Assembly (NCBI GenBank): GCA_036274495.1
Contig: DASUFP010000039.1
Span: 11,303-75,302, forward strand
Reading direction: 5' to 3'
DNA length: 64,000 nt
From: Bacteroidia bacterium
GTDB taxonomy: Bacteria; Bacteroidota; Bacteroidia; AKYH767-A; OLB10
Shown here: piece after piece, positions 30,392 through 49,775 of the stretch
Position numbering within the stretch: position 1 is the stretch's first letter
How the letters are laid out: every line of letters starts with the position of its first letter
The notes under the pieces: generated by a model
Told to the model about the DNA's origin: nothing
Seen by the model: the letters and a program-made list of their open reading frames with translations, nothing else
Database searches by the model: none
Translations under genes and position numbers: made by a program

Positions 30392-31544
30392 CGTGATTTG
30401 GTTTGACGACCAATTTGACACATTAAATATCATACGAGAAGAAGCCCATTTAGCTGGCATTTCACTTGTTGGATTTTCTGACGCTCAGTCTGGTTTGCAT
30501 GAATTAGAGAAAAATTCACATTTGTATGATGCAGCCTTAGTCGATGGGAATTTCTTCATTAAACCTGGATTAAATTCTGACCAAGTTAGTGATGAAGCTC
30601 TTGACATTGTAGCTAAAGCTTTTCTTAGGCTTGAAACAAAAAAAATTATCCCATGGTTTATTCTTTCTGGTCAAGCCAATTTTACAAAAGGTGGAAACAA
30701 GTATGCTGATGTATATAAAAATGGAGAAGTTTTTGACAAAATAAATGAAAGTTCTCGTCAGGAATTATGGAATAAAATAAAAGAGGCAGCAAACCATCAA
30801 CCTGACACTCAACTTCGGCACAAATATCGTATGATTTTTGAGTTGTGCGATGAGAATTATCTGGGTATACATATGTCTGAAACATTGATGGGATTGATTC
30901 ATTTGCTTAAAGATGATTCAGAAGTGGAGCAAGGACTCCAATCTTGGAATACAATCCGGAAAGTAATTGAAAGATGTTTCATTGTACTTAACCGAATTGG
31001 CTTAATACCAGATGAGATAAATCGAACTTCTGGAAGTATAAATGGGTCAGGCTTGTTTTTGGCGGGCAAGCATTCCGATTTTCGATTGAAAAAAGAAATA
31101 GCTCCACCTGTAATTAATTTTATGATTCATAATTTGTTAGAACTTACACAAGACGGCTCTCATTCAAAAGAAGAATTAAAGCTTAAAGTAGATTTATTTG
31201 TAAAAAATCAACCAACCGGTTTTCTATTTAAAAGTAGCATTTATCAACTTTTGGAGATTCTAATTTGGCTTAAGAGCATTATTGACACTTATCCATCAAT
31301 AGATGACAACAAAAACCTTATTGAACTTCGAAGCGTCTCAAATACTGCCATTTATGAAGGCGAAATTGAACAAGACGAGCGTAAAAATTTTCACTGTGGA
31401 GAATATTTGTTAAACTTTCGTTTAGTAAATGAAAGTTACAAGGTTGGTGATATTATCAGAATATTGGATTTCACCTCTAACAACAATTCAAGAACAAATA
31501 TTTTTTATTCAAAATTTGCAACTAAATTTATAAAGATAACTTAA
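30375..31544 (+). CDS. Receiver (REC) domain protein with ~250-aa C-terminal domain of unknown function (candidate output/effector). It overlaps the kinase-fusion gene by 17 bp
   Basis: N-terminus VIWFDDQ...YDAALVDGNF...IPWFILSGQ...TKGGNK fits the REC Asp-Asp/Asp/Ser-Thr/Lys pattern. The C-terminal part is unassigned. Confidence 0.5.
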   Translation: MMQKYNVIWFDDQFDTLNIIREEAHLAGISLVGFSDAQSGLHELEKNSHLYDAALVDGNFFIKPGLNSDQVSDEALDIVAKAFLRLETKKIIPWFILSGQANFTKGGNKYADVYKNGEVFDKINESSRQELWNKIKEAANHQPDTQLRHKYRMIFELCDENYLGIHMSETLMGLIHLLKDDSEVEQGLQSWNTIRKVIERCFIVLNRIGLIPDEINRTSGSINGSGLFLAGKHSDFRLKKEIAPPVINFMIHNLLELTQDGSHSKEELKLKVDLFVKNQPTGFLFKSSIYQLLEILIWLKSIIDTYPSIDDNKNLIELRSVSNTAIYEGEIEQDERKNFHCGEYLLNFRLVNESYKVGDIIRILDFTSNNNSRTNIFYSKFATKFIKIT

Positions 31545-31551
31545 TAATCTC

Positions 31552-33027
31552 ATGACCCAAAAACAACTCGAAGACTACCTGTGGGGCGCAGCCAACATCT
31601 TGCGTGGAATGATTGATGCTGCCGATTTCAAGCAGTATATTTTTCCTTTGCTGTTTTTTAAACGAATCAGTGATTTGTGGGATGAGGAATTTGAAATTGC
31701 CAAAGTGGAGAGCGGTGGCGACTTAAAATACGCTGAGTTTGCCGAAAATCATCGGTTCCAGATTCCGAAAGGATGTCATTGGAACGATATCCGAAAAAAG
31801 ACGGTGGATGTAGGAGCCGCTTTGCAAAAGGCATTAACCGGTATTGAGAAGGCTAATTTTGAAATGCTACATGATGTATTTGGTGATGCCCAATGGACGA
31901 ACAAACGCCGGATGAGTGATGAAAAAATGCTCGACCTAATAGAACATTTCAGTAAAATGAATTTGAGTGTGAGTAATGTGCCCCACGACTTGATGGGGGA
32001 AGGGTATGAATACCTCATCAAAAAATTTGCGGATGACAGCGGGCACACGGCTGCGGAGTTTTATACCAATCGCACTGTGGTAAAACTCATGACCCAGATT
32101 ACAGACCCCAAAAGCAAAGAGAGTATATACGACCCGACATGTGGAAGTGGCGGAATTTTACTAAGTGCTGCCCTACATTTGAAAGAGCAAGGTAAAGAAT
32201 ACCGAACATTGAAGCTGTACGGACAGGAGTTGAACCTGATAACCTCTGCTATTGCCCGTATTAATATGTTTATGCATAACGTGGATGAGTTTCTTATTGT
32301 CCAAGGCGATACCCTTGACAGCCCACAAATTCTTGAAAACGATGAGTTGAAGCAATTTGATGTTATTATGGCCAATCCTCCTTATAGTGTAAAGAAATGG
32401 AGCCAGAAAAAGTGGATGAATGACCCTTTTGGACGTAATATCTGGGGTACGCCTCCCCAGGGTTGTGCCGATTATGCCTTCCAGCAGCACATTATGAAAA
32501 GCCTGAACCCTGTTACAGGACGTAGTGTGGTATTGTGGCCTCACGGAGTATTATTCCGGGATGCGGAAAATGAAATCCGTAAAAAAATGATTGAGGAAGA
32601 TTATGTGGATGCGGTTATCGGGCTTGGGAAAAATCTGTTTTACAACAGTAGTATGGAAAGTTGTTTGCTGGTGTGTAGGATGAAAAAGCCAAAGGAGCGA
32701 AAAGGAAAGATTATTTTCATTGATGCCAAAGATGAACTTAGAGTTGAGCGGACTAATGCCTGGTTGGAGCCACAGCACATTAAGAAGATAAGCGATGCAT
32801 ATTGGAAGTTTAAAGATATTGACGGTTTTGCCAAAGTAATCTCTAATAAGGAAGTGTTGGTTAACAATGGTAATCTCAGCTTACCACTCTACGTGAAGCA
32901 ATCTACTAATGCATCTGAACACAATACTCAAGAGTTAATTTCCGAAATTAAAGATAGACAGAAACAAATCAATAAGTCTATTGATAATTTGGTTGCTCAT
33001 CTTAAACAAATTGGAATAGAATCATGA
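31552..33027 (+). CDS. hsdM: Type I restriction-modification system methyltransferase subunit HsdM
   Basis: HsdM N-terminal domain LEDYLWGAANILRG. Motif I YDPTCGSGGIL. NPPY motif MANPPYSV. Confidence 0.9.
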   Translation: MTQKQLEDYLWGAANILRGMIDAADFKQYIFPLLFFKRISDLWDEEFEIAKVESGGDLKYAEFAENHRFQIPKGCHWNDIRKKTVDVGAALQKALTGIEKANFEMLHDVFGDAQWTNKRRMSDEKMLDLIEHFSKMNLSVSNVPHDLMGEGYEYLIKKFADDSGHTAAEFYTNRTVVKLMTQITDPKSKESIYDPTCGSGGILLSAALHLKEQGKEYRTLKLYGQELNLITSAIARINMFMHNVDEFLIVQGDTLDSPQILENDELKQFDVIMANPPYSVKKWSQKKWMNDPFGRNIWGTPPQGCADYAFQQHIMKSLNPVTGRSVVLWPHGVLFRDAENEIRKKMIEEDYVDAVIGLGKNLFYNSSMESCLLVCRMKKPKERKGKIIFIDAKDELRVERTNAWLEPQHIKKISDAYWKFKDIDGFAKVISNKEVLVNNGNLSLPLYVKQSTNASEHNTQELISEIKDRQKQINKSIDNLVAHLKQIGIES

Positions 33028-34184
33028 AGTTGAATAAGCATAAGTGGGGTTCGGTTAAGCTTTCCGAGGTTTGCGAAAAAACTCAAAATGTTGATATACG
33101 CAAGCAATCAGGAATATTCAGTTATATTGATATTGGGTCTATTAATTCTGATGCAAAAAGAGTATCTGAAGTCCAAATGCTGAATTGGTCAGAAGCTTCT
33201 TCAAGAGCAAGACAAATAATTCATAAAGGAGATACTCTTTTTTCAACTGTACGAGTCAATCTCGAAAGAATTGCGTTTATTGATAAGGAAATTCCTAATG
33301 CGATTGCCTCTACTGGATTTACTGTTATAAGAGCCAATAAAAAGGCTTTGCCAGAATTCTTATTTTACTCAACAAGTTCTCCGGAATTTATAGAAAGACT
33401 TTGCAAATTGCAAAAGGGGACTGCTTATCCTGCGGTTTCTGATAGAATAGTCTTTAATGAAGTTATTCCCCTCCCCTCACTCGCCGAACAAAAGCAAATA
33501 GCCGAATTATTTCAAAGCATTGAAGCTGCCATGGAACAGGTGGAGGGGCAGGAGAGGAATTTGAGGACACTTCAAAAATCCTTAGTCAATGGCTTAGTTG
33601 GCAAAAAACCAGTCTTTGGAGATTTATTGAACGCAAAAAACTGCACCCCTACAACCTTTGGTGAAATAGCCGAGTGCGACAAAAAGTACCCTGAGCATGA
33701 ATTAGAGGCGGAACGGTTTGTTGGTTTGGAGAATATTGAGGCTGATAACTTTCAACTGCTTGGTTATGGATTAGTTGCCAATGGAACCACTTTTTCCAAA
33801 CGGTTTTGCACTGGAGATGTATTGTTTGGGAAGCGAAGAGCATACTTAAAAAAAGTTGCAGTCGCAGATTTTAATGGTATATGTTCAGGTGACATCCTGG
33901 TAATAAGAGCTAAGGCTAAGAAAATGCTGCAGGGGCTTTTGCCATATTATATTTCAGCAGATGCATTCATTCAACATGCCGTCAGTACTTCTGCAGGCTC
34001 TTTATCTCCACGGACCAAATGGAAAGATTTAGCTGACTTCGAGATTTCAATACCTGATATAAAAACACAGGAGAAAATACTGGCAATCCTTAGTCAGTTT
34101 GATAATACTATTAATCAGCTCAAACAGCAGAAGGTGACATTGAAAAATTTGAAGCAAAAGTTACTGAATGAGATTTTGGGGTAA
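33024..34184 (+). CDS. hsdS: Type I restriction-modification system specificity subunit HsdS (two target recognition domains)
   Basis: Two TRDs separated by the conserved PLPSLAEQKQIAELF region, with C-terminal LKQKLLNEIL. The gene overlaps the end of hsdM. Confidence 0.85.
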   Translation: MKLNKHKWGSVKLSEVCEKTQNVDIRKQSGIFSYIDIGSINSDAKRVSEVQMLNWSEASSRARQIIHKGDTLFSTVRVNLERIAFIDKEIPNAIASTGFTVIRANKKALPEFLFYSTSSPEFIERLCKLQKGTAYPAVSDRIVFNEVIPLPSLAEQKQIAELFQSIEAAMEQVEGQERNLRTLQKSLVNGLVGKKPVFGDLLNAKNCTPTTFGEIAECDKKYPEHELEAERFVGLENIEADNFQLLGYGLVANGTTFSKRFCTGDVLFGKRRAYLKKVAVADFNGICSGDILVIRAKAKKMLQGLLPYYISADAFIQHAVSTSAGSLSPRTKWKDLADFEISIPDIKTQEKILAILSQFDNTINQLKQQKVTLKNLKQKLLNEILG

Positions 34185-34327
34185 TAGTATAGTATTGGGA
34201 TTCAATATTATAAGTTTAATTTTTTATGTCTCAGTAAAAAGGGGGCCAAGTTATATTAAAAAATTTGTCTTAGATTTGTGTTGTTCGTTTTCTGAGTGAC
34301 CTAACCCTGTGGTTAATCTAAAGTCAA

Positions 34328-36559
34328 ATGAAAATGAACAAAAAACCTTCACCTGAACCTGAAACAAAGGTTGCAAGAATCATTGGGTTATTCAAGACTT
34401 CTCCAACAGAAGCTTTTCAATCATTACTCGAAGAAGGAATTTTCTTTAACCACAAGCAAAGTGTCAATTTTTGGCAGAGTTATTCTGCAATTTACTCTGA
34501 TGAACTTGTTGTATCATTTCCTGAATCAACAGAATTATTCAACAAGTTGGTTTGGCTCAAACTGTTCCATGATTTAAATCAATTCTATAATTCGGAAAAG
34601 GATAAAAACCTAAAAGAGTTATATGCTCTCAATCCGAATCAAAAAGATTTTGTTCAAGCCCTATTTCTTTGTCTTGAACTTGGAACCTATAGTTATCCAT
34701 ACTCGACCTTTCCGATTTATTCTGGAGATTCCCTCACGGCAATTAAAACTATCCTTAAGGAAGTAAAACATCGCTTAAATCCCCAGAAACCATCTCCATA
34801 CTCCCCTGCACTTGCTCAAACGTGCAACACTCTGTTAAAAATCCAGATAGATTTGGATTCGCTCGAAGAATTCGTTGATGCATATGTATGGGCAGGACTT
34901 GAAATGGAGAAACTGAAAGATTTGCAAGGATTTTCATTATCCATTTCAGAACGAAATAAAAAAGAGCTCAATCCACTTGTATTAAATCAAATAAAGACGA
35001 TAATAAAGCGAACATATAAACAAACAGAATCACATGCTGGGATTTCGACAGAAAAACACTTTATAAAGAACGACCCTAAATGGAAGTCCAATGAAGGTAT
35101 ATTAGGGGCAATTGCCTTACATGGGGCAACTATCCATTCAAAAACACCTGGAATAACAGCGATAAATGCTGAGCCTGGAGAGTTTCCGGAATTAGACGTA
35201 ACCAATCCGCATTCTATTAATTCAATTGCGAAGAAAGCCATTGAAACATTTTTGACTCACAATTTTCATTTACAGCTAAGACAAGCAATCTCCAGTGTTT
35301 ATCAACCTAATGATGAGATAGATATCAAGACAATTCAGATTGAAGTCAAACCAAACATGTTTTTTTCACTTTTCGAGTTGATAGCTGCAATGTCAAGTCT
35401 GATTTCATGGTCGGATGCATATAGGTATTTCGCAGATTTTCCAGACAGTGGAAGCATCAAGTCTATCAAGAGGAAACTTTACCATCAGCTATCAAGCCAG
35501 GATGCAGATTTATCTGAGTTTGAAAAACACGAAATAATTAACTGGAAAATCGTGAGCGAATTTCAATTAATCAATTCAGCTCCAGAAAATATTTTCTATG
35601 CCTTATTGAGCTCAGATAGTATTATCAATAAATTTCGGGATGTTGAAGAATTAAGGGACAAGTCTCCGATTGAACTTGAATCTATTTTACATTTATTTTC
35701 AGATTTGAATATTAAAACGCCTTTTAATCCAATTTATACTGTTAATAGTGATTACTATTTTGCTAATCACAGTTGTCTTTTCAATATGAATCGCATGTTA
35801 TATGACAATTACATTTCAGATGAATTGTTCAATTCAAAAAAGCCCACGGGAAAGCAAAGAAAACATGTAGGGGATTTACAGAAAAATCGGGAATTACAAT
35901 TTGGCAATTCGATTTCAGATGTTTTTAAAGAAATAACTCCATATAGTAAAGCAAATATAAAATTTGATGGAACCAATCCTAAATATAATTTCGGTGATTT
36001 AAAGGGTGAACTGGATACGGCTGTTTATTTCGAGTCAGAAAACATATTGTTTGTAATTGAGGTGAAGTTAAGTAATGTTGCTCCAAGGAGCGAAAAAAGA
36101 AAATACACTTGGGTATACAATAATATTGCAAATAAACATAAAGTAAATTCGGGAGTAAATCAAATCAAGAAGGATTTAAAGTTATTAAGTATTGGTGTCG
36201 GGTTACAATTAATTTCAGAGGAGATTAACGCTCCGAGTACAATTACAAATCCCCGTGTTTATCCAATAATCATTACTGATAATTTCTTTGCTGACCATGA
36301 AGAATTCATATACAATGAGAGAGGAGATAAGGTTCGTTGCATCAGTTATTTTGAACTTAAACATCTCATTTTAAACAAACCGATTCACGAACAGCAAAAA
36401 TTGCCTGAATTAAAAGGAGAATCAATCGCATCACAATTAATAAAGGCAATTGATAACAATTTATTTTGGAAATTCATTACTGATGAGGCTGCAAACTATT
36501 CATACACCAAGTCCCTCACTGCCATCAATGATGAATTCAAAATAACTATGAAGATATAG
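34328..36559 (+). CDS. Large hypothetical protein (743 aa) with C-terminal PD-(D/E)xK-like nuclease motif, inserted between hsdS and hsdR
   Basis: GELDTAVYFESENILFVIEVKLS fits the Asp...Glu-x-Lys restriction-endonuclease-fold motif. No other recognizable domain. Confidence 0.4.
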   Translation: MKMNKKPSPEPETKVARIIGLFKTSPTEAFQSLLEEGIFFNHKQSVNFWQSYSAIYSDELVVSFPESTELFNKLVWLKLFHDLNQFYNSEKDKNLKELYALNPNQKDFVQALFLCLELGTYSYPYSTFPIYSGDSLTAIKTILKEVKHRLNPQKPSPYSPALAQTCNTLLKIQIDLDSLEEFVDAYVWAGLEMEKLKDLQGFSLSISERNKKELNPLVLNQIKTIIKRTYKQTESHAGISTEKHFIKNDPKWKSNEGILGAIALHGATIHSKTPGITAINAEPGEFPELDVTNPHSINSIAKKAIETFLTHNFHLQLRQAISSVYQPNDEIDIKTIQIEVKPNMFFSLFELIAAMSSLISWSDAYRYFADFPDSGSIKSIKRKLYHQLSSQDADLSEFEKHEIINWKIVSEFQLINSAPENIFYALLSSDSIINKFRDVEELRDKSPIELESILHLFSDLNIKTPFNPIYTVNSDYYFANHSCLFNMNRMLYDNYISDELFNSKKPTGKQRKHVGDLQKNRELQFGNSISDVFKEITPYSKANIKFDGTNPKYNFGDLKGELDTAVYFESENILFVIEVKLSNVAPRSEKRKYTWVYNNIANKHKVNSGVNQIKKDLKLLSIGVGLQLISEEINAPSTITNPRVYPIIITDNFFADHEEFIYNERGDKVRCISYFELKHLILNKPIHEQQKLPELKGESIASQLIKAIDNNLFWKFITDEAANYSYTKSLTAINDEFKITMKI

Positions 36560-36606
36560 TGCATAGGTGAGTTATCGGAGAATCCGATAATCTAAATCTC
36601 ACCACT

Positions 36607-37476
36607 ATGCAAAATTCTTCATTACCCAAAATCCCGTCCGTTAACTTTCACTTATGGGAACCCTGCAACATGCGTTGCGGATTTTGTTTTGCCACCTTCC
36701 AGGATGTAAAACAAACTGTTTTACCAAAAGGGCACCTTCCAAAAGATGATGCCCTGAGAATTGTAAAACTTCTGGCAGATGCCGGTTTTCAGAAAATCAC
36801 CTTTGCCGGTGGAGAGCCTACACTCTGCCCCTGGCTCACTGAGCTTATCGTTGAAGCAAAAAATGCCGGGATGACTACCATGATAGTTACAAATGGTACC
36901 GGCCTTAGCAACTCTTTCCTAAAACAGAACCGGGAATATCTGGACTGGATAGCCATCAGTATTGACAGCATCTCTCCTGAGACCAACATGGCTTCGGGCA
37001 GAGCTATCTCTGGTAACAGACCGTTAAGTTTAGCGCAATATCAGTTACTGATTGCACAGATTCATCAGTTTGGATACAACCTGAAAATTAATACCGTTAT
37101 AAACCGGTTAAATTATTTGGAAGACCTGAATGAATTTATCCGGTTTGCCAATCCTAAACGATGGAAGGTTTTGCAGGCACTGCCAATAGTTGGACAGAAC
37201 GACCGGAAAATTGATGCATTCAAAATTTCACAGCAGGAGTTCAACTTTTTCCTTCATACCCACCGGAAGTTGCATCACTTGTTAGTGCCTGAAACCAACT
37301 CTCAGATTTTAGGGTCATACGTAATGGTGGACCCAGCCGGGAGGTTTTTCGATAATTTCGAAGAAAAGCACCGGTACAGTATGTCGATTTTGGAGGTTGG
37401 GGCTCAACAAGCTTTGACGCAGGTGCATTATGATGCCTTAAAATTCCAAGACAGAGGTGGAATATATGATTGGTAG
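36607..37476 (+). CDS. Prokaryotic viperin homolog (pVip), a radical SAM antiviral enzyme
   Basis: CNMRCGFCF radical SAM cluster motif. Extended identity to human viperin is visible by eye: VNFHLWEPCNMRCGFCFATF vs NYHFTRQCNYKCGFCFHTA; YLDWIAISIDS vs YLDILAISCDS; LKINTVINRLN...NPKRWKVLQALPIVGQN vs FKINSVINRFN...NPVRWKVFQCLLIEGEN; LVPETNSQILGSYVMVD vs LVPESNQKMKDSYLILD. It ends in a C-terminal Trp like viperin. Confidence 0.85.
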   Translation: MQNSSLPKIPSVNFHLWEPCNMRCGFCFATFQDVKQTVLPKGHLPKDDALRIVKLLADAGFQKITFAGGEPTLCPWLTELIVEAKNAGMTTMIVTNGTGLSNSFLKQNREYLDWIAISIDSISPETNMASGRAISGNRPLSLAQYQLLIAQIHQFGYNLKINTVINRLNYLEDLNEFIRFANPKRWKVLQALPIVGQNDRKIDAFKISQQEFNFFLHTHRKLHHLLVPETNSQILGSYVMVDPAGRFFDNFEEKHRYSMSILEVGAQQALTQVHYDALKFQDRGGIYDW

Positions 37477-37485
37477 TTTCACGGG

Positions 37486-37790
37486 AAACATGTCGATTAT
37501 TTTAACTATTTTCGACACGTTATTGGCTTATGTCGATTTTATCAACATATAGGACAAGTTTTAAATTCAACCATCATTTAAATATATTTATTTGATATTC
37601 AACTATATATCAAACATTTTAAGTGTTTGTAAACCTCTATCTTGAAATCCTAAAACGTACTTTATTGAAATTCAAATAAATATAACTTTCAAAAACAAAA
37701 TATCCTTAGAATAGTTGGGAAGACTCTTGCATGTGTCGATTTTATTGTAGATTTTCGACATATCGAAAGCTCATGTCGAGCCTGTATACA
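37486..37790. promoter_or_regulatory. Two copies of a 28-bp AT-spaced dyad TGTCGA-N16-TCGACA plus extra half-sites in the pVip-Fic intergenic region (candidate operator)
   Basis: tgtcgattattttaactattttcgaca at 37490-37517 and tgtcgattttattgtagattttcgaca at 37734-37761. Additional tgtcga half-sites at 37530 and 37774. Confidence 0.3.
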
Positions 37791-37794
37791 TATC

Positions 37795-38877
37795 ATGAAT
37801 AGAACAGACCCCTTTAATCAGCTTCCGGATTTACCTCCCAAAACGGACCTTGAAAGCCCGGAATTTCTCAAAGCCAGTATCAAAGCCAGCAGGTTATTAG
37901 CTGAATTGAAAGGGTATTGTCAAACACTCCCAAACCCCAGACTACTGATAAATACCATAGTGCTACAGGAAAGTAAAGATAGCTCCGCAATTGAAAATAT
38001 TGTTACCACCCAGGATGAACTGTACAGAGCAGTTGCTTCTATTGACGACGGAGATGGATTTGGTGCAGCAACAAAGGAAGTGTTATGGTATCGTGAAGCA
38101 CTGTACCATGGATTGGATTTAATGAGAAGCCGGGGGTTGACCACAAATACCCTCATTGCCATCATGCGGAAATTGAAAAATACAGATGAGGGTATTCGAA
38201 AAAACACAGGCACCAAGCTTGCTAATCCAACCACAAAAGAAATAATCTATACGCCACCCGAAGGAGAAACGCTCTTAAGAGAAAAACTCACTTCACTTGA
38301 AAAATTCATGCATAATGACAAGGATGATATTGATGTATTGATAAAAATGGCACTCATTCATTATCAATTTGAGGCAATTCACCCATTTTCCGATGGCAAT
38401 GGTAGAACAGGTAGAATTTTAAATGTGTTGTATCTGGTACAAAAGGAGCTATTAAATATCCCGGTATTATATATGAGTTCTTATATCATCCAAAGAAAAG
38501 GTGATTACTATCGTTTACTCCGTGAAGTAACAGAAAATCAAAATTGGAGAGGTTGGATATTGTTTATGCTTCAAGCTGTATCCGAGACGGCTGAAATCAC
38601 GCTTGCAAAGATTGATGAAATCCAGAAGTTGAAAAAGGAAATGACCGGAACGGTAAAAGATGTGCTAAAAAATTCATACAACAGCGAATTAGTCGATTTA
38701 ATGTTTAGCTTTCCGTATTTGAAAATTAAAATTTTGGAAAAACACGATATTGCCCAGAGACAAACTGCATCAGTGTACTTGCAAAAGCTCGCAAATGTTG
38801 GTATTCTCCAGCCTATGAAAGTCGGAAAGGAAATGTATTATATCAATCACAGACTCATGAAACTTTTTAGCAACTAA
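37795..38877 (+). CDS. Fic family protein (AMPylation/Fido domain with C-terminal winged helix)
   Basis: Canonical Fic motif HPFSDGNGRTGR. Confidence 0.85.
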   Translation: MNRTDPFNQLPDLPPKTDLESPEFLKASIKASRLLAELKGYCQTLPNPRLLINTIVLQESKDSSAIENIVTTQDELYRAVASIDDGDGFGAATKEVLWYREALYHGLDLMRSRGLTTNTLIAIMRKLKNTDEGIRKNTGTKLANPTTKEIIYTPPEGETLLREKLTSLEKFMHNDKDDIDVLIKMALIHYQFEAIHPFSDGNGRTGRILNVLYLVQKELLNIPVLYMSSYIIQRKGDYYRLLREVTENQNWRGWILFMLQAVSETAEITLAKIDEIQKLKKEMTGTVKDVLKNSYNSELVDLMFSFPYLKIKILEKHDIAQRQTASVYLQKLANVGILQPMKVGKEMYYINHRLMKLFSN

Positions 38878-38882
38878 TTTTT

Positions 38883-41861
38883 ATGTCATTTAATGAACTT
38901 AATGCGGTAGAACATTTTATCATTCACCAGTTAACCGGTGTAAATCTGAATGATGTTCAAAAGAGTCGTGCGGAAGATGGTCCGGTATCGTATGCAAACG
39001 AACCGAAGTGGAGATATGTTCAATCTGAACTGCTAAAACGGGATATATCTGATGTACTGCTGGAATCCGAATTGAAGGATGCTCTTTACAGATTAAATCC
39101 ACAGTTGAATGGTAGCTCTGAAAAGGCAGATGAAATAATTCATAAACTCAGAGCGATTCTAATAACAGTTAACAATGTAGGACTTGTAAGAGCTAACGAA
39201 GAGTTTTCAAAATGGCTCCGTAATGAAATGACGTTGCCTCTTGGTAAGAATCATGAACACATCACCATCAGGTTAATTGACTTTGAGCAGGTAGAAAACA
39301 ACAGTTATATTCTAACTAACCAATTAAACTTTCGGGCACGGGAAACTAAAATTCCTGACATCGTAATGTATGTCAATGGTATTCCGCTTGTAATTGGCGA
39401 AGCGAAGACACCGGTACGTCCTGCCGTGACCTGGTTTGATGGTGCCCATGACATTCATCAAATTTATGAGAATGCAATACCGCAACTATTCGTCCCAAAT
39501 ATCTTTTCATTTGCAACGGAAGGCAAAGAGCTGTTCATTGGTGGTGTCCGAACTCCACTTGAATTTTGGGCTCCCTGGCGAATTGAAGTCGAAAAAGACG
39601 AACTAAGTCATTTTGCCGGTCTGAACGATGTGGCGAAACAGCTAACACACTTGCTGAAACCCTCAACTGTTCTGGATATTCTCCAGTTCTACACAGTTTA
39701 TGCAACCAGCAGCAAGAAAAAGAAAATCAAAGTGGTGTGCAGGTATCAGCAATATGAGGGCGCAAATGGTATTGTGGAGCGTGTGAAAGAGGGGAAAATC
39801 AAGAAAGGACTCATTTGGCACTTCCAGGGTTCCGGTAAATCGTTGCTGATGTTGTTTGCAGCTCAGAAATTGCGAAAACAGCAAGACTTGCATAATCCTA
39901 CGGTCTTGATAGTGGTTGACCGAACCGACCTGGATACTCAGATAGCAGCAACTTTTAATACTGCCGAGGTTCCCAACATGGTTACAACCGACAACATAAA
40001 GCAACTGCACAAATTACTCGAACAAGATACCCGCAAAATCATTATCACCATGGTTCACAAGTTCAAGGAAGCGTATGCTGATATGAACACACGGGAGAAC
40101 ATCATTGTGATGGTGGATGAAGCTCATCGAACGCAAGAAGGTGATTTGGGTAGAAAAATGCGAAGCGCACTTCCAAATGCTTTTCTTTTCGGACTAACCG
40201 GTACTCCCATCAATAAAGCAGATAAAAACACTTTCTGGGCTTTTGGAGCTGAGCAGGATTCGGGAGGATATATGAGCCGGTATACTTTCCAGGACAGCAT
40301 CCGTGATAATGCTACCCTACCATTACATTTTGAACCCCGATTACCAAATTATCATATCGACAAAGAAAGTCTCGATGTTGCTTTCAGGGAGATGGCAAAT
40401 GACCTAAGTGAAGAAGACCGGAATAAACTTAGCCAGAAGGCTGCAAATATGTCGGTCTTTCTAAAATCTCCTGAGCGAGTAAAAACCATTGTTGCCGATA
40501 TCGCAGAACATTTTAAAGCACACGTTGAGCCGGAAGGTTTAAAGGCGATGATAGTTACTCCGGACAGGTATGCTTGCATCCAGTACAAGGAAGAACTGGA
40601 TAAACTCATGGGTGCTGAATGCAGTGCGGTTGTTATCAGTACATCCGCAAACGATGATTATGAATTCAAACAGAAATGGGGACTTGATAAAGATGCACAG
40701 GAAAAGGTGGTGGAGAAATTTAATGATTCTGATTCGCCATTGAAGTTTCTCATTGTGACAGCCAAACTTCTAACAGGGTTCGATTCTCCCATTCTGCAAA
40801 CCATGTACCTGGATAAATCATTAAAAGACCATACTCTCCTACAAGCGATTTGCAGAACAAACAGACTATTTCCCAATAAAACATTTGGTAGAATCGTAGA
40901 TTATTTCGGTGTGTTTGACGATACAGCCTCTGCCCTGGCGTTTGACGAAGCCAGTGTAAAGGCAGTTATCACTAATTTACAAGAGTTGCGTGACAAATTA
41001 CCTGAGTGGATTGACAAATGCCTTTCTCATTTCTCTGGAGTTGATAGGACTCTTGGCGGATTTGAAGGATTACAAAAAGCTCAGGATTGTATTAACACAA
41101 ATGAGAAGCGTGATGCATTCGCCAAAGACTACAGCAGCTTGTGCAAATTATGGGAAGCCCTTTCACCTGACCCGGTATTAAATCAATATCAGAAAGATTA
41201 CAAATGGCTGTCGCAGGTATATACAAGTGTAAAACCTGCTTCAGATGATAATGGCCGTTTGCTCTGGCATGCACTTGGTGCACAAACAACAGCTCTAATT
41301 CACGAACACATTCATGTTACAGGCATCAACAAAGAGATGGAAGAGTTGGTGCTGGATGCCGAAGTGATTGATGACTTAATGAATAAAAAAGACCCAAACA
41401 AGGCAAAGAAAGTGATGATTATATTAATTGGCCGTTTGAAGAAACACGGCAATAATCCAATCTTTAAAAAGCTAAGTGAACGACTGGAAATCATACGTAG
41501 CAAAGCAGAACAAGGCCTCATTAATTCAGTTGAGTTTATCAAGGAACTGTGTCAAATTGCGAAGGAGACACTGCAGGCGGAAAAAGGCATTGAAACTAAA
41601 GTCGAGCAGAAATCTGGCAAAGCTGCACTAACTGAATTGTTTTTGGAATTAAAAACCGACACCACTCCAGCAATCGTAGAACGAATCGTTAATGACATTG
41701 ACGAAATCGTTCGAATTGTCCGTTTTGACGGATGGCAGGATTCTACGGTAGGCGAGCGGGAAGTGAAAAAAGAACTCCGGAAGGTGCTTTGGACAAAATA
41801 TCAAATAAAAGATGAGGAGTTGTTTAATAGGGCGTATGATTATATAAGGGAATATTATTAA
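38883..41861 (+). CDS. hsdR: Type I restriction-modification system restriction subunit HsdR
   Basis: SF2 helicase motif I FQGSGKS and DEAH box VMVDEAHRTQ. Length 992 aa. It directly follows the hsdM/hsdS cluster. Confidence 0.9.
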   Translation: MSFNELNAVEHFIIHQLTGVNLNDVQKSRAEDGPVSYANEPKWRYVQSELLKRDISDVLLESELKDALYRLNPQLNGSSEKADEIIHKLRAILITVNNVGLVRANEEFSKWLRNEMTLPLGKNHEHITIRLIDFEQVENNSYILTNQLNFRARETKIPDIVMYVNGIPLVIGEAKTPVRPAVTWFDGAHDIHQIYENAIPQLFVPNIFSFATEGKELFIGGVRTPLEFWAPWRIEVEKDELSHFAGLNDVAKQLTHLLKPSTVLDILQFYTVYATSSKKKKIKVVCRYQQYEGANGIVERVKEGKIKKGLIWHFQGSGKSLLMLFAAQKLRKQQDLHNPTVLIVVDRTDLDTQIAATFNTAEVPNMVTTDNIKQLHKLLEQDTRKIIITMVHKFKEAYADMNTRENIIVMVDEAHRTQEGDLGRKMRSALPNAFLFGLTGTPINKADKNTFWAFGAEQDSGGYMSRYTFQDSIRDNATLPLHFEPRLPNYHIDKESLDVAFREMANDLSEEDRNKLSQKAANMSVFLKSPERVKTIVADIAEHFKAHVEPEGLKAMIVTPDRYACIQYKEELDKLMGAECSAVVISTSANDDYEFKQKWGLDKDAQEKVVEKFNDSDSPLKFLIVTAKLLTGFDSPILQTMYLDKSLKDHTLLQAICRTNRLFPNKTFGRIVDYFGVFDDTASALAFDEASVKAVITNLQELRDKLPEWIDKCLSHFSGVDRTLGGFEGLQKAQDCINTNEKRDAFAKDYSSLCKLWEALSPDPVLNQYQKDYKWLSQVYTSVKPASDDNGRLLWHALGAQTTALIHEHIHVTGINKEMEELVLDAEVIDDLMNKKDPNKAKKVMIILIGRLKKHGNNPIFKKLSERLEIIRSKAEQGLINSVEFIKELCQIAKETLQAEKGIETKVEQKSGKAALTELFLELKTDTTPAIVERIVNDIDEIVRIVRFDGWQDSTVGEREVKKELRKVLWTKYQIKDEELFNRAYDYIREYY

Positions 41862-41872
41862 AATATCTTAAC

Positions 41873-42676
41873 ATGGATTATAATATCAAGGAGCATGGGG
41901 ATTGGCTCGAAAAGCAGGCAGCAGACTATATTAATACAAATATTCCCGCATACGAACTGATTTGGAAATCGTTAATTGGTCACAAGGGAAATGGGCAAAT
42001 GGCGACAATGCAAAATCTCAATGATTCAGCAGCACGAACAAGAGTTGATTTTGCTCAACATCATTATACAATTCTTGAATCCCTTTATTTTATGCAATTG
42101 ATGGCAGATGATGAAAATAAAATCAAAACAATAATTTCATTTGAGCAATATAGAATAGTCATAAATCAAATAATGTCTTTTCAGGCATATTCGGGAAGGC
42201 TCAGAGATAATATAGGAGAGTGCTTTTTTTTAATAGCCCCCAAGGAAGAAGCCGAAAAAGCCATAAAAAAACTGGAAGAGTTTTACAACGAACGTCATAT
42301 TTATATTCACGGTAGAAAGGTTCCATTTTCAATTGATGCCGACAATATTTTTAAAATTGCTTTGGTAAAACGTAGTACTATTTCTTCTACAGGGTTTGGA
42401 AAAGATATGCCATGGGAATCCATTTCAGACAAAGAAATGAATTACTTAACTGATACATTCAATAAATCGCTCACTGAACTAAAACCATTAGTACAAGGAT
42501 TGCTGAGTAATCTTTACCAATTTGTAAATAAGTTTATACATAAAAGTGGCGGAAAGTTAATCTTTGGGTATTCTGCAAATTTGGAATCCCCAATTTCCTC
42601 ATCAATTAATCCGGCTCCTTCAGCATCGGCATATTTTCCGGATATAAATTCATCTGGCGGAAACTATTTGTCATAA
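41873..42676 (+). CDS. Hypothetical protein
   Basis: 267-aa ORF immediately downstream of hsdR. Confidence 0.35.
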   Translation: MDYNIKEHGDWLEKQAADYINTNIPAYELIWKSLIGHKGNGQMATMQNLNDSAARTRVDFAQHHYTILESLYFMQLMADDENKIKTIISFEQYRIVINQIMSFQAYSGRLRDNIGECFFLIAPKEEAEKAIKKLEEFYNERHIYIHGRKVPFSIDADNIFKIALVKRSTISSTGFGKDMPWESISDKEMNYLTDTFNKSLTELKPLVQGLLSNLYQFVNKFIHKSGGKLIFGYSANLESPISSSINPAPSASAYFPDINSSGGNYLS

Positions 42677-42711
42677 ATCTCCAGAATTTTCTAATCCAAA
42701 ACATGTAACTT

Positions 42712-44202
42712 TTGAAAGTATTACTGGATACAAATATTATTATTCATAGAGAAGCAAGTCGGGTAATCAACCAGGATATTGGAATCTTATTTAATTGGCT
42801 GGATAGACTACATTATATAAAATGCGTTCATCCACTTTCTGCAGACGAATTAGGTCGACATCAGGATATAAAGACCGTGCAAACTATGCATGCAAAGTTG
42901 CAGAATTACCAAATTTTGCAAACACCAGCACCCCTACATGAAAAAGTAAAACAAATAAGTTCTGGAATTGATGTTTCACCAAATGACATTGAAGATACAA
43001 AGCTTTTAAATGAGGTGTTTTGTGAAAGAGTAGATTTTCTAATTTCAGAAGATAAGAAAATTCACGCCAAAGCTGCTTTACTTGGAATTTCACCGAAAGT
43101 TTTTAGAATAGATTCCTTTTTAGAAAAGGTCACTGCAGAAAATCCCGATTTTGTAAATTATCAGGTCCTTTCTGTAAGAAGGGATTATTTTGGAAACATA
43201 AATCTTAATGATGAATTCTTTGATAGCTTTAGAGGTGACTATGTAGGATTTGACAAATGGTATAACGGGAAAGCTGGTGACAACGAAAAGGCATATGTTT
43301 GTTATGAAGAAGGCACTTTGAAAGCGTTTTTATTCCTCAAAGTAGAAAATGAAAATGAAAACTATTCTGAATTAAATCCGGGTTTTCCCAAAAAGAAAAG
43401 ATTAAAAATCGGCACCTTCAAAGTTGTAAGCAATGGATTACGTTTAGGCGAAAGGTTTCTAAAAATTATATTCGACAATGCCCGGCAATATAAAGTTGAT
43501 GAAATATATGTCACCATTTTTGATAAGCGGCCCGAATTGCTAAGCCTCATTAATCTACTTGAGAAATTTGGTTTTAGGTATCATGGTGAGAAAACATCTC
43601 AATCAGGAATTGAAAAAGTATATGTTCGTGATTTTTCTAAAATTACTGATGACCAAAACCCCAAAAATACATTTCCCTGGCTTTCCAAAACAAGTGATGT
43701 ATATATTATACCAATACGTCCTGAATATCATACCGATTTATTACCTGATTCAATGTTAAGAACTGAATCAGCCATCAATTTTATAGAAAATGAACCTTAT
43801 CGGAACGCTATTAGCAAAGTTTATGTGTCACATTCACAAACCCGTAATTTGAGAACAGGAGATATAATTGTTTTTTACCGTAGCGGAGGTATACATAAGG
43901 GTGTAGCAACTACAATTGGAATAGTTGAGAATGTGATTATTCCATCTACACTTGAAGAACTTATCAGTGTGTGCCGAAAACGGACCGTATTAACTGAATC
44001 CGAATTGGCAGAATACTGGAACAGGTTTTCAAACTTAAAACCATTCGTGATTAACTTCTTATATGCATTCTCATTTAAGAAACGGATGAATTTAAAAGGT
44101 ATGTTAGATAATGGTATACTTGCTAACATGGATATGGTGAAAACTATTACCAAAATGGAAAGAGAATCCTTAGTTAATCTAATAATTTCGTGCGGAATAT
44201 GA
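42712..44202 (+). CDS. Multidomain protein: N-terminal PIN-like nuclease domain + GNAT acetyltransferase-like domain + C-terminal ASCH/PUA-like domain
   Basis: MKVLLDTNIII...ISED gives the PIN acidic residues. RLKIGTFKVVSNGLRLGERFLK fits the GNAT R-x-x-G-x-G/A acetyl-CoA loop. The C-terminal VYIIPIRPEYHTDLLPD...GDIIVFYRSGG...IGIVENV resembles the ASCH fold. Confidence 0.45.
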   Translation: MKVLLDTNIIIHREASRVINQDIGILFNWLDRLHYIKCVHPLSADELGRHQDIKTVQTMHAKLQNYQILQTPAPLHEKVKQISSGIDVSPNDIEDTKLLNEVFCERVDFLISEDKKIHAKAALLGISPKVFRIDSFLEKVTAENPDFVNYQVLSVRRDYFGNINLNDEFFDSFRGDYVGFDKWYNGKAGDNEKAYVCYEEGTLKAFLFLKVENENENYSELNPGFPKKKRLKIGTFKVVSNGLRLGERFLKIIFDNARQYKVDEIYVTIFDKRPELLSLINLLEKFGFRYHGEKTSQSGIEKVYVRDFSKITDDQNPKNTFPWLSKTSDVYIIPIRPEYHTDLLPDSMLRTESAINFIENEPYRNAISKVYVSHSQTRNLRTGDIIVFYRSGGIHKGVATTIGIVENVIIPSTLEELISVCRKRTVLTESELAEYWNRFSNLKPFVINFLYAFSFKKRMNLKGMLDNGILANMDMVKTITKMERESLVNLIISCGI

Positions 44203-44570
44203 GAGTTGTTTTATCTATTAAACCGGAATTTGCAGACAAAATATTCGATGGCTCAAAGAAATTTGAGTTTCGAAGGAGCATCTTCAAAAATCCTGATGTA
44301 AGTCGAATCGTTGTGTATGCCTCTTCCCCGGTTCAAAAAATAATTGGAGAGTTTGAGGTTGAACAAATTTTAGTACATGACTTAAAAACTCTTTGGAATA
44401 TAACAAAGGATTATTCAGGTATTTCAAAGAATTATTTTTATGAATATTTTAATGATAAGGAGAAGGGATTCGCTATTAAAATTAAAAACACTAAGAAATA
44501 TAAAAAGCCGAAGTGTATACGAAAGGATTTCAACCTATTTCCCCCACAGTCCTTCTTGTATTTAATTTAA
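44190..44570 (+). CDS. ASCH domain protein
   Basis: VVLSIKPEFADKIFDGSKKFEFRR is the classic ASCH N-terminal signature. It overlaps the preceding gene by 13 bp. Confidence 0.7.
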   Translation: MRNMRVVLSIKPEFADKIFDGSKKFEFRRSIFKNPDVSRIVVYASSPVQKIIGEFEVEQILVHDLKTLWNITKDYSGISKNYFYEYFNDKEKGFAIKIKNTKKYKKPKCIRKDFNLFPPQSFLYLI

Positions 44571-47943: not shown

Positions 47944-48789
47944 ATGTACGACTTTGACCGTTATTACAACCATTGCCCAAAAACTTACCTCCTGAAGGCT
48001 ATCGGAGGAAAATTTCGTTCCCGTTCAAAAATTGTTGGTGAACTCATTAGACTCATTCGTGCCAACCAACGCTATGAATTCAGGGAGCCATTTGCATTCG
48101 GAGGAGCCATCACATTTGAAATGATGCGACAAACCAACATTCATAAATATTGGATGAATGACAGGGACCCAGCTGTGACCTGCTTTTGGATAGCCGTGAG
48201 GGATTCTGCCGACTTGTTGATTGAACACCTGGTTCAATCAACCCCGAATGACAAGCAGTATGATGAATACCGGCATCAATTGCTGGCATTGAGGAGTGTT
48301 CCCAGAAGCAAGTACGAGATTGTATATGTCGCTCTAATGAAATTAGTGATTCAAAGGCTCTCTTACTCTGGTTTGGGTACCATGGCATCACAGCCTTGTA
48401 AAAATAAAAGCGTGCGCTGGAACCGTGAGAATCTCACCAGTGAGTTAGAGATATTGTCAGCATTAATGAATGACAATACAGTCCGAATTACCAATCATGA
48501 TTTTGAGCCCATGCTTACCGACACTTCACGGCAGGCGTTAATTTATTTAGACCCTCCATATTTTCATAAGGGTAAGGGTCTATATCAGTATAACATGGAT
48601 GTGGACGACCATGTTCGGCTGGCTTGCATTTTAAAAAATACGCCTCACCCATTTGTGCTCAGTTATGACGATTGCGAGGAGGTCCGTGACCTCTATGGTG
48701 GTTGGACTAAGTTTAATTTGCTTCCATTTGAGTATACCAGCAAGAATCAGCGCAACACTCAAAATGAATTACTCATCATTCGTAAATAA
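47944..48789 (+). CDS. Dam-family (D12 class) N6-adenine DNA methyltransferase, orphan
   Basis: AIGGKF and EPFAFGGAITFE (motif I), and IYLDPPYF (DPPY motif IV). Confidence 0.8.
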   Translation: MYDFDRYYNHCPKTYLLKAIGGKFRSRSKIVGELIRLIRANQRYEFREPFAFGGAITFEMMRQTNIHKYWMNDRDPAVTCFWIAVRDSADLLIEHLVQSTPNDKQYDEYRHQLLALRSVPRSKYEIVYVALMKLVIQRLSYSGLGTMASQPCKNKSVRWNRENLTSELEILSALMNDNTVRITNHDFEPMLTDTSRQALIYLDPPYFHKGKGLYQYNMDVDDHVRLACILKNTPHPFVLSYDDCEEVRDLYGGWTKFNLLPFEYTSKNQRNTQNELLIIRK

Positions 48790-49702: not shown

Positions 49703-49775
49703 GGAGGTCGCGAGCAGATTCGAACTGCTGTACAAGGTTTTGCAGACCTCTACCTAGCCTCTCGGTCACGCGACC
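49703..49775 (-). tRNA. tRNA-Cys (anticodon GCA)
   Basis: Minus-strand sequence GGTCGCGTGACCGAGAGGCTAGGTAGAGGTCTGCAAAACCTTGTACAGCAGTTCGAATCTGCTCGCGACCTCC. It has a 7-bp acceptor stem, a T-arm AGCAG-TTCGAAT-CTGCT, and an anticodon loop CTGCAAA with U33 and GCA at positions 34-36. The variable loop is short. Confidence 0.85.

Follow-up and report, generated by a model that had tools for sequence, protein, structure and literature searches.

Why do three genes stand between the specificity and restriction genes of a Type I restriction-modification (RM) operon in a Bacteroidia bacterium, and do they belong to the RM system, to each other or to neither? The window analysed here is the whole stretch of 64,000 nucleotides, and on its + strand the ORF list gives the order hsdM, hsdS, X743 (an ORF of 743 aa), pVip, a Fic gene and hsdR. 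The frame of the operon consists of three genes:

31552..33027, + strand: hsdM, Type I RM methyltransferase subunit, 491 aa (Pfam HsdM_N and N6_Mtase, 297 bits)
33024..34184, + strand: hsdS, specificity subunit, 386 aa (Pfam Methylase_S, two stretches)
38883..41861, + strand: hsdR, restriction subunit, 992 aa (Pfam HSDR_N, SWI2_SNF2, ResIII and T1R_D3)

The hsdS and hsdM genes overlap by 4 nt, hsdR starts 5 nt past the end of the Fic gene, and by Pfam a Type I RM system is complete in one operon on one strand, with HsdM, HsdS carrying two target-recognition domains, and HsdR carrying a nuclease and an SF2 motor. The initial annotation had described the locus as such an operon, with hsdM and hsdS contiguous, hsdR following only after three inserted genes, and guest genes lodged in the hsdS-hsdR gap; the ORF list and the Pfam domains of the flanks bear this out, as does a second locus, L012, where the same hsd frame encodes proteins with amino acid identities of 92% (HsdM), 87% (C-terminal part of HsdS) and 96% (HsdR). 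Because L012 holds other cargo in this frame (an HD phosphohydrolase, a 338-aa ORF, X743, pVip, and a NOV_C protein where the window has Fic), the hsdS-hsdR gap is a variable cargo slot. Guest genes within Type I RM operons, pVips and SoFic-type Fic proteins are as such ordinary and already known. The three guests are nevertheless unequal, in that X743 and pVip belong together in a single conserved bicistronic cassette, which recurs in many contexts other than RM loci, and Fic is independent, exchangeable cargo.

For the radical SAM gene, the initial annotation had proposed a viperin without an adjacent kinase, had called for an HMM check of its membership, and had named a MoaA-like housekeeping enzyme as the case that would speak against it.

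36607..37476, + strand: pVip, prokaryotic viperin, 289 aa, without a kinase domain (NF038283, PADLOC, solved viperins)

The protein scores 318.1 bits against the NCBIfam equivalog model NF038283 'viperin family antiviral radical SAM protein' (cutoff 180) and 179 bits against the eukaryotic viperin model, and PADLOC pVip models match it at 288-461 bits. Solved viperins align with residues 6-289, end to end and including the C-terminal extension (E 1e-46 to 2.5e-46), and the C terminus, RGGIYDW, stays in alignment with viperins up to the terminal aromatic residue. The [4Fe-4S] cluster motif CxxxCxxC is present as CNMRCGFC (C20-N-M-R-C24-G-F-C27), Pfam Radical_SAM matches at 67.7 bits, and an identical protein already carries the viperin family name at NCBI. 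The generic radical SAM core, which is common to MoaA, yields 76.3 bits against the MoaA model TIGR02666; set against the viperin scores, the full-length alignment and the position of the gene in a defence island adjoined by an integrase and a tRNA gene, a MoaA-like housekeeping identity can be practically dismissed. Judged by these comparisons, the gene encodes a true prokaryotic viperin, the product of which would presumably be a ddhNTP (3'-deoxy-3',4'-didehydro-NTP chain terminator). Its separation from kinases also stands: no nucleotide kinase is encoded beside pVip in the window, and Pfam, NCBIfam and PADLOC detected no kinase domain in pVip, X743 or their neighbours. The pVip clade is large and Bacteroidota-rich, with ~40% of the close relatives listed being fused to a cytidylate-kinase domain, and a kinase fusion is present in the homologous cassette of L002/L003. 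Partners reported for pVips in the papers searched are NMP kinases, which accompany 12% of bacterial pVips (bioRxiv 10.1101/2023.09.13.557418), and the HicA and RelE RNases (10.1101/2023.12.08.570793). By sequence, the 289-aa protein belongs fully among the described pVips (Bernheim et al. 2021), a set that takes in kinase-associated and kinase-fused forms. What sets it apart is its partner, an upstream PD-(D/E)xK protein of ~740 aa, with a structured, start-occluding RNA between the two and no kinase.

That partner, X743, is what is new here, and from its sequence and predicted fold it represents a previously undescribed family of nuclease-like proteins.

34328..36559, + strand: X743, 743 aa, new family; N-terminal ~530 aa mainly helical, followed by a predicted C-terminal PD-(D/E)xK nuclease domain
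35930..36556, + strand: predicted nuclease domain of X743, ~aa 535-743, with D563, E571, E578-x-K580 and D651/D656/H657

The conserved start codon is probably the second ATG, at 34334, a small correction to the ORF start at 34328. No match to X743 was obtained with Pfam, NCBIfam, PADLOC (E <= 0.01) or PHROG, and the family is rare, with ~80 cluster representatives among 1.84 billion and named hosts that are all Bacteroidota. In agreement with the earlier description of a large nuclease-like guest, the C-terminal end of the predicted fold is a FokI/Upx-like PD-(D/E)xK nuclease of the restriction-endonuclease-like alpha/beta type, in which the catalytic D...(D/E)xK signature lies on adjacent strands (D563 in strand 560-568, E578-V-K580 in strand 573-580). 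D563 and K580 are invariant in 49/49 representatives; position 578 holds E in 24 of them and Q in another 24, and as most core-clade proteins have Q, catalysis may rest on E571 or be altered, leaving the activity of many relatives uncertain. No second conserved nuclease site was found, and the candidate PND329...E339xK341 is not conserved in distant relatives. The structure closest to the predicted fold is probably Upx (PDB 9wuf), a defence in which one protein is both sensor and nuclease and phage terminase is the activator (PMC13601566; PMC13099982), although a profile of 33 X743 homologues searched against all PDB sequences retrieved no Upx chain at E <= 10. Upx has 1272 aa, three domains and a second, N-terminal nuclease site, whereas X743 is shorter, at 743 aa, and showed no such conserved site; moreover, Upx acts alone, and core-clade X743 is tied to pVip.

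How firmly the two genes are tied can be seen from other loci. By tblastn, 17 contig groups, unrelated in their flanks, have a pVip gene directly 3' of X743, the gap being ~40-66 nt (~47-48 nt in most loci), with identities of 30-86% for X743 and 45-89% for pVip. One alternative is that X743 and pVip are independent single-gene defences hitch-hiking as a mini defence island, and that the hairpin between them serves only mRNA stability or processing. This would fit with distant X743 relatives (23-29% identity) standing alone in defence islands (L016, L017), with intact X743 lacking pVip in L007 and L015, with the absence of X743 from most pVips of the clade (3402 pVip homologues vs ~80 X743 representatives), and with Upx working as a single protein. 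However, order, strand and short spacer persist amid the unrelated flanks even where X743 identity has fallen to 30%, and the two solitary intact copies look like secondary losses: the sequence of L007 diverges exactly at the hairpin start, and L015 has kept the hairpin, lost pVip and continues in unrelated DNA. These decay forms point to an ancestral X743-pVip pair, and, with the evidence from the leaders given below, hitch-hiking seems unlikely, if still worth serious consideration.

The cassette also appears to carry its own promoter.

34271..34278, + strand: TAGATTTG, match to the Bacteroidota -7 promoter consensus TAnnTTTG, putative X743-pVip promoter (positional conservation)

A TA..TTTG-type box occupies the same position in most of 13 aligned loci, with a few divergent loci off by one or two bases, and upstream of it the flanks are unalignable. 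As the TAnnTTTG pattern by itself is not enriched in the window, the evidence lies in this conserved position, from which TAGATTTG is the probable promoter of the cassette. The promoter bears on a further explanation, namely that X743-pVip guards the Type I RM system as PrrC does, firing when phage anti-restriction proteins inhibit HsdMSR. PrrC, whose gene lies within a Type I locus, senses RM inhibition and is the classic precedent (PMC12707154); here, as with prrC in EcoprrI, accessory genes separate the restriction gene from the modification genes. The cassette is inside an RM operon in the window and in L012 and directly after another hsdR in L013/L014/L021, and a distant X743 relative lies beside hsdM/hsdS in L016. 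Yet such co-location is expected of any defence-island gene, and among the loci checked the Hsd proteins of the window find matches only at L012, in the L013 group and at L016; elsewhere the cassette is flanked by a Type III-like RM system and a group II intron (L001) or placed among housekeeping genes (L002/L003 and L004/L005). Unlike in EcoprrI, the cargo is a pVip cassette plus SoFic. Since the cassette, with a probable promoter of its own, is mostly found outside RM loci, there is no sign that it depends functionally on the RM complex, and a guardian role is highly improbable.

Both genes of the cassette are preceded by structured RNA, and the two leaders are of the same type.

34281..34341, + strand: structured 5' leader of X743 (MFE -18.3 kcal/mol, z -5.25; covariation)
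36560..36611, + strand: structured intercistronic leader of pVip, a nested hairpin (MFE -21.9 kcal/mol, z -6.24; covariation)

In the X743 leader, the outer helix pairs the 5' end of the transcript with the AUG region and is followed by a middle helix (GAC/GUC), an inner hairpin (UAACC/GGUUA) and an unpaired AAUCUAAA. Over 12 loci, pairing holds in 89.4% of cells, vs 25-51% with the partners slid, and compensatory changes are seen in 9/18 pairs, a result reached by 0/500 shuffles. The pVip hairpin begins 6 nt past the X743 stop codon in the window (range 3-9 nt) and ends in the pVip AUG; it has an outer helix GGUGAG/CUCACC, extended over the AUG in the window, an inner hairpin UUAUCGGA/UCCGAUAA and an unpaired loop AAUCUAAAU. 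For this leader, 14 distinct sequences give 91.4% of cells paired vs 31-53% slid, with compensatory changes in 11/16 pairs (0/500 shuffles equal), and RNAalifold predicts the same structure de novo. A covariance model built on it finds exactly one + strand copy, at 48-79 bits, in every pVip-bearing locus searched and in L015. Neither leader matched Rfam (cmscan of positions 34000-39000, E <= 1; one chance CAESAR hit elsewhere). Their common architecture comprises an outer helix, an inner hairpin, an exposed AAUCUAAA ~10 nt before the AUG, and a buried start codon. The exposed AAUCUAAA may be a general initiation signal and not a cassette-specific regulatory site. The arrangement AAUCUAAA-N10-AUG is also found ahead of an unrelated host gene (window 6274-6282, minus strand).

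It could be argued that both leaders act as DNA, either as repressor operators or as cruciform or recombination sites at the cassette junctions. The breakpoints of L007, at the hairpin start, and of L015, after the hairpin, are as expected from a recombination hot spot, and L032, where pVip is solitary, has the conserved TAATCTAAA too, upstream of a promoter-like sequence that precedes the gene. Nevertheless, the helices covary and their sequence is not conserved, several G-U pairs would correspond to A-C mismatches in the opposite strand, each element has a start codon at its end, and in the window the covariance model of the pVip leader scores 70.8 bits on the + strand vs 22.7 bits on the - strand. 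The G-U pairs and this asymmetry point to RNA and not to a DNA palindrome, and a role of the leaders at the DNA level is very unlikely. As read from the sequences, X743-pVip is a mobile unit of two genes in fixed association, and it brings along its own probable promoter and, over the start codons, two conserved RNA hairpins.

For the working of this unit, we lean with modest confidence towards an hsdS-hsdR gap that serves as a cargo slot for two independent guests, a self-contained X743-pVip anti-phage cassette under tight translational control and a SoFic-type Fic gene. X743 would be a single chain joining a presumed sensor or regulatory N-terminal part of ~530 aa to a Mg-dependent FokI/Upx-type PD-(D/E)xK nuclease, pVip would turn NTP into the chain terminator, and a Bacteroidota-type promoter would drive both. 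In each cistron, the leader helix would bury the start-codon region around a small hairpin followed by the exposed AAUCUAAA. Bacteroidota do not rely on Shine-Dalgarno pairing, and the ribosomes of Bacteroidia depend on an unstructured start region, so both leaders should hold X743 and pVip levels low. As the pVip leader begins so close to the X743 stop codon, its 5' arm should be opened by a ribosome that terminates on X743, which should make the pVip start accessible; pVip synthesis would then depend on, and be proportional to, the translation of X743. We infer this coupling from the anatomy of the spacer, a covarying helix that runs from just past the stop codon to the AUG and by which the translation of the two genes would be physically linked; both this helix and the use of one leader type on the two genes argue against mere hitch-hiking. 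Like known translational coupling or occlusion hairpins, the pVip-leader helix hides the downstream start, begins within the footprint of the ribosome terminating upstream and shows compensatory substitutions; unlike these and other cis-regulatory leader RNAs, it belongs to no Rfam family, its architecture is used twice per cassette, and it occurs in a non-Shine-Dalgarno phylum.

Functional cooperation between X743 and pVip may occur but is not required by the data, because distant X743 proteins stand alone, most pVips of the clade occur without X743, and pVips, in work credited to Bernheim et al. 2021, are reportedly protective alone under heterologous expression. It is doubtful that X743-pVip is an unrecognised two-component anti-phage system with interdependent activities, in which both genes are silenced by a new class of paired riboregulatory leaders (a start-occluding helix plus the exposed AAUCUAAA) that opens on infection. 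If the activities were interdependent, viperin chain terminators might yield stalled or 3'-blocked transcripts or transcription complexes that the Upx-like nuclease recognises and destroys; alternatively, X743 might sense a phage protein and license pVip.

The other guest of the favoured two-guest slot, the Fic gene, would be exchangeable cargo with its own upstream region.

37795..38877, + strand: SoFic-type Fic protein, 360 aa, with Fic_N, Fic and a C-terminal SoFic-like winged-helix domain (Pfam; PADLOC SoFic, 382 bits)
37492..37517, no strand: inverted repeat TGTCGA-N14-TCGACA (read from the sequence)
37734..37760, no strand: second copy of the inverted repeat, TGTCGA-N15-TCGACA (read from the sequence)

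A Fic enzyme had been expected among the guests, and the Pfam domains and the PADLOC match agree. SoFic itself is reportedly a Fic-domain defence gene, credited to Millman et al. 2022. The protein of the window shares with SoFic the three-domain composition and an intact active-site motif, HPFSDGNGRTGR, which conforms to HxFx(D/E)GNGRxxR, and its inhibitory motif is SSAIEN. It differs from SoFic in scoring 457.9 bits against NF046030, below the NCBIfam equivalog cutoff of 550, and in its place immediately upstream of hsdR, behind an AT-rich spacer of 318 nt that separates it from pVip. This spacer carries the two TGTCGA...TCGACA inverted repeats, the second of which lies 35 nt before the Fic start codon, and the repeat is possibly an operator.

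The initial annotation had described window positions 31552-41861 as a Type I restriction-modification (RM) operon carrying guest genes, and this interpretation is right: the six ORFs are arranged in tandem on the plus strand, with the ORF list and Pfam agreeing that three extra genes split hsdR from hsdM and hsdS. The operon is surrounded by a defence island of about 23 kb (26499-49775), whose features are as follows.

Gene order and repeats of the RM operon and its defence island (window coordinates)
left bound of the island: DUF2130 gene
27845-31544: 848-aa fusion and 389-aa ORF, directly upstream of hsdM
31552-33027, plus: hsdM (Pfam HsdM, Type I restriction-modification)
33024-34184, plus: hsdS (Pfam HsdS, Type I restriction-modification)
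34328-36559, plus: X743, the large nuclease-like ORF (ORF list)
36607-37476, plus: pVip, the prokaryotic viperin gene (ORF list, viperin models)
37492-37517: inverted repeat TGTCGA-N14-TCGACA
37734-37760: inverted repeat TGTCGA-N15-TCGACA
37795-38877, plus: SoFic-type Fic gene (ORF list, Pfam)
38883-41861, plus: hsdR (Pfam HsdR, Type I restriction-modification)
41873-44570: 267-aa ORF (no match), PDC-M11A and PDC-M11B, after hsdR
46588-47922: tyrosine integrase, right side of the island
47944-48789: Dam-type methylase, right side of the island
49703-49775, minus: tRNA-Cys, right bound of the island

The viperin (already annotated), the SoFic enzyme, the RM system and the principle of guest genes are known. 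What the locus adds is an X743 family with no earlier description, the bicistronic arrangement that this family conserves with pVip, and two covarying leader RNAs; it appears to be a pVip system in which both the dedicated partner and the regulation are new. None of these three was found in the searchable literature, the coverage of which is incomplete, nor was any association of pVip with a nuclease or with the defence protein Upx found in that literature, outside which most subscription journals lie.

For pVip, the HMM check bears out the assignment of the 289-aa protein to the prokaryotic viperins, with 318 bits for NCBIfam NF038283 (cutoff 180) versus 76 bits for MoaA, and three PADLOC pVip models also match. 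Solved viperins align over the full length, including the C-terminal RGGIYDW (E ~1e-46), the motif CNMRCGFC is present, and the identical protein at NCBI is named 'viperin family antiviral radical SAM protein [Bacteroidia bacterium]'. The clade is large and mainly found in Bacteroidota (3402 homologues at E <= 1e-40), with a cytidylate kinase fusion in about 40% of its close members among the matches listed. The best PADLOC model is likewise a kinase fusion, its match being confined to the viperin part (positions 177-460), and Pfam, NCBIfam and PADLOC detect no kinase in or beside the window copy, as had been claimed. A kinase hidden in X743 was considered and rejected, as no kinase or P-loop family of Pfam or NCBIfam matches it. 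Elsewhere in the clade, pVips adjoin LytTR response regulators and histidine kinases (L030 3815-8137; L032 3437-5882); in the former locus, from Lacinutrix, a 97-aa ORF and then an NT5C-type 5'-nucleotidase lie downstream of a kinase-pVip fusion, and a chromosomal hot spot with START_2, Aminotran_4, DUF179 and HU is common to L030 and L031. A conserved 46-48-aa ORF (...NKGT.G.NK.Y....GNRGKQLNPNQ...) was observed near pVip or X743 genes of two unrelated loci (L030 5796-5936; L015 10756-10902).

For X743, no match was obtained in Pfam, NCBIfam, PADLOC or PHROGs. Among 5.8 billion proteins 33 relatives were found, all full length at about 735 aa and without a name, and the family profile gave only 83 matches to 1.84 billion cluster representatives. 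Wherever the locus has an organism name the host belongs to Bacteroidota (Bacteroidia, Chitinophagales, Marinoscillum, Crocinitomicaceae). Searches of PHROGs, plasmids, phage genomes and IMG/VR viral contigs returned nothing, and there is thus no sign of the X743-pVip cassette being phage- or plasmid-borne. The ORF has two in-frame ATGs 6 nt apart (34328 and 34334); alignments with homologues begin at the second, the ATG that also lies within the conserved leader helix, and the protein is probably 741 aa long.

The AlphaFold model of X743, built from the 33-sequence alignment, is confident (pLDDT 85, pTM 0.84) and has D563 and E578-x-K580 on successive strands. This motif is the most conserved feature of the family: D563 and K580 are invariant among 49 full-length representatives, members at about 25% identity included, E and Q are equally frequent at position 578, and E571, N583, Q612, D651, D656 and H657 are near-invariant. 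The motif had first been picked out by eye. A candidate second nuclease site, YQPND329...E339xK341, comparable to the Upx N-terminal domain, was dropped because the more distant relatives do not preserve it. Upx, which is activated by the phage large terminase, defends as a single protein of 1272 aa and carries a FokI-like nuclease at its C-terminus (PMC13099982; PMC13601566). X743 resembles it in architecture but not in sequence, since neither PADLOC nor a profile search against PDB sequences revealed any similarity, and X743 is therefore called Upx-like in architecture and not a member of the Upx family. The PDB-sequence search matched only 2q9r, a DUF-type helical protein, and that marginally (E 0.004-0.006). 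As X743 is a compact unannotated family with this recently solved terminase sensor as its only structural relative, it could widen the Upx class.

The pairing of X743 with pVip is conserved across contigs fetched via X743 homologues, pVip lying 3' of X743 in the same orientation, with a spacer between them that measures about 40-66 nt and in most loci about 47-48 nt. The pair was found in the window and in the contig groups L001, L002/3, L004/5, L006, L008, L009, L012, L013/14/21, L019, L020, L022, L023, L025, L026, L027 and L029, with identities to the window copies of 86%-30% for X743 and 89%-45% for pVip. The flanks are unrelated between loci, comprising in L001 a Type III-like RM system that includes a Fic gene, along with a group II intron, housekeeping genes in L002 and L004, and in L013 a different hsdR, itself preceded by AbiEii, immediately before the pair; the pair in L027 is on a 723-kb metagenomic contig, and in L002/L003 its pVip is fused to cytidylate kinase. 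The exceptions look secondary: in L007 divergence after the X743 stop codon starts exactly where the spacer hairpin is expected to begin, in L015 the hairpin is kept and followed by unrelated DNA, in L010 X743 is broken, and in a Bacteroidota MAG chromosome (L009 8001-11141; CP064983.1) frameshifts split both genes and leave the spacer hairpin intact, reflecting decay of the cassette or else errors in the assembly. The more remote X743 relatives (23-29% identity) are solitary in their defence islands; one adjoins hsdM/hsdS and another an MmeI-type methylase, a PLD-helicase and HigB. Judged from these gene neighbourhoods, X743 therefore appears to be a family of stand-alone defence nucleases in which one clade gained and retained pVip, and the stand-alone X743 relatives together with the many solitary pVips show that any biochemical cooperation of the two proteins is not obligatory for either family.

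The cassette probably has its own promoter. In an alignment of the 160 nt before X743 from 13 loci, conservation sets in about 75 nt before the start codon and opens with a box of the TAnnTTTG type (TAGATTTG, window 34271-34278), matched by most loci and missed by one or two bases in a few divergent ones; TAnnTTTG is the Bacteroidota -7 promoter consensus, and the box, conserved in position, is read as a promoter. A sigma-70 promoter and terminator scan was uninformative (43 found versus 38 expected), sigma-70 being the wrong promoter model for Bacteroidota, and found no intrinsic terminator between genes.

Both cistrons are preceded by structured leaders of the same architecture, neither of which matches Rfam. 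In the X743 leader the transcript 5' end pairs with the AUG region (z -5.25), the outer helix enclosing a GAC/GUC helix, a UAACC/GGUUA hairpin and unpaired AAUCUAAA; across 12 loci 89% of cells are paired versus 25-51% with the partners slid, and 9 of 18 pairs show compensatory changes. In the pVip leader the outer helix extends from 3-9 nt past the X743 stop codon to 0-3 nt before the pVip AUG, reaching over the AUG in the window (z -6.24), and encloses an inner UAUCGG/CCGAUA hairpin and unpaired AAUCUAAAU. Here 91% of cells are paired over 14 distinct sequences (31-53% when slid), compensatory changes affect 11 of 16 pairs, a number equalled by no shuffle, and RNAalifold returns the same structure unaided. 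In L015 and in every pVip-bearing locus that was searched, the covariance model found exactly one plus-strand copy (48-79 bits), its only other matches being on the window minus strand (22.7 bits) and, at chance level, elsewhere on the plus strands of L009 and L020 (18.5 bits, E 0.31). The G-U pairs and this strand asymmetry argue for an RNA.

The sequence TAATCTAAA lies 10-11 nt before both start codons. Its sole other occurrence in the 64-kb window (6274-6282, minus strand) is preceded by a small GATA/TATC hairpin and stands 10 nt before the ATG of a gene that is unrelated and encodes a signal-peptide/secreted protein (MKKLKMTVVLAALFF...), and TAATCTAAA may therefore be a general initiation-region signal, access to which would be regulated by the helices. 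Of the five ATCTAAA heptamers in the window, three are placed 10-11 nt ahead of a real start codon, a hint that this bacterium has a general motif of the initiation region that has not been described.

Ribosomes of Bacteroidia initiate without Shine-Dalgarno pairing, guided instead by the structure of the mRNA and by adenines upstream of the start (PMC6847099). It is plausible that the leaders keep both cistrons at low translation, and that a ribosome terminating on X743 would reach the 5' arm of the pVip leader, so that pVip translation would be coupled to that of X743. By analogy with Upx, X743 may serve as a sensor-nuclease and pVip would provide ddhNTP chain terminators, the two together forming a two-armed cassette. 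Viperins are among the clearest links of bacterial to human antiviral immunity, and the partners known for them in bacteria are nucleotide kinases and small RNase toxins. A dedicated, conserved partnership of pVip with a large sensor-nuclease-like protein would, if true, be a new way to deploy chain-terminator chemistry and would offer a natural setting in which to test whether a nucleotide-analogue arm and a nuclease arm act in synergy. As candidate cis-regulatory RNAs, the two covarying leaders are short and easily tested by reporters, and they come from the Bacteroidia, where translation initiation rules are unusual and few elements of this kind are known.

A related contig with the same RM frame (L012) shares 92% amino acid identity with the window in hsdM, 87% in hsdS (C-terminal part), 96% in hsdR, 86% in X743 and 89% in pVip. 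Its hsdS-hsdR gap holds, in order, an HD/HD_assoc phosphohydrolase, a 338-aa ORF, X743, pVip and a NOV_C protein, with no Fic gene between hsdS and hsdR; SoFic is therefore independent, exchangeable cargo, and the two contigs together document directly that this gap is an exchangeable cargo slot. The 360-aa Fic protein of the window is of the SoFic defence type, with Fic_N, Fic and SoFic-like C-terminal domains (Pfam), the motif HPFSDGNGRTGR and 382 bits for PADLOC SoFic; its score is under the NCBIfam SoFic equivalog cutoff. The AT-rich 318-nt spacer from pVip to its gene contains the two inverted repeats, which may be operators, as SoFic has a C-terminal winged-helix domain; half-sites occur at about 37530 (ATGTCGATTTTATC) and 37773 (CATGTCGAG). 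Upstream of the pair in L001 (451-7104), a Fic gene again lies between methylase and restriction genes (N6_N4 methylase, Fic protein, ResIII helicase) of a Type III-like operon, followed by a group II intron reverse transcriptase.

For the island as a whole, the order runs from the DUF2130 gene through the 848-aa fusion and its 389-aa partner, the RM operon, the 267-aa ORF and PDC-M11A/B to the tyrosine integrase, the Dam-type methylase and tRNA-Cys, the last three at the right edge suggesting an integrative element inserted at the tRNA gene. The same integrase type is downstream in L012. The 848-aa protein combines an N6 methylase, a specificity-like domain and HATPase_c, with weak PADLOC matches to MADS mad2/mad5, and the 389-aa ORF, which overlaps the end of the fusion gene, has no family match; the two, kept in L012 as 900 aa and 288 aa, may be a separate methylation-associated defence system. 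Past hsdR, the PADLOC candidate system is matched strongly (PDC-M11A 681 bits, PDC-M11B 174 bits).

Beyond the X743-linked loci, the covariance model gave nothing convincing in L030 or L032, and in Winogradskyella rapida (L031 3462-6879) the sequence before the pVip gene scored only 13.7 bits (E 0.42). This pVip is 64% identical to that of the window and follows an unrelated 820-aa TPR protein, directly after hsdR; the possibility that the 820-aa protein is a divergent X743 was rejected (hhalign probability 0.15). By eye, the start codon of this pVip lies within a similar hairpin with exposed CAATCTTAAAT, and the combination of a large upstream partner and a pVip start that is occluded may extend beyond the X743 cassette.
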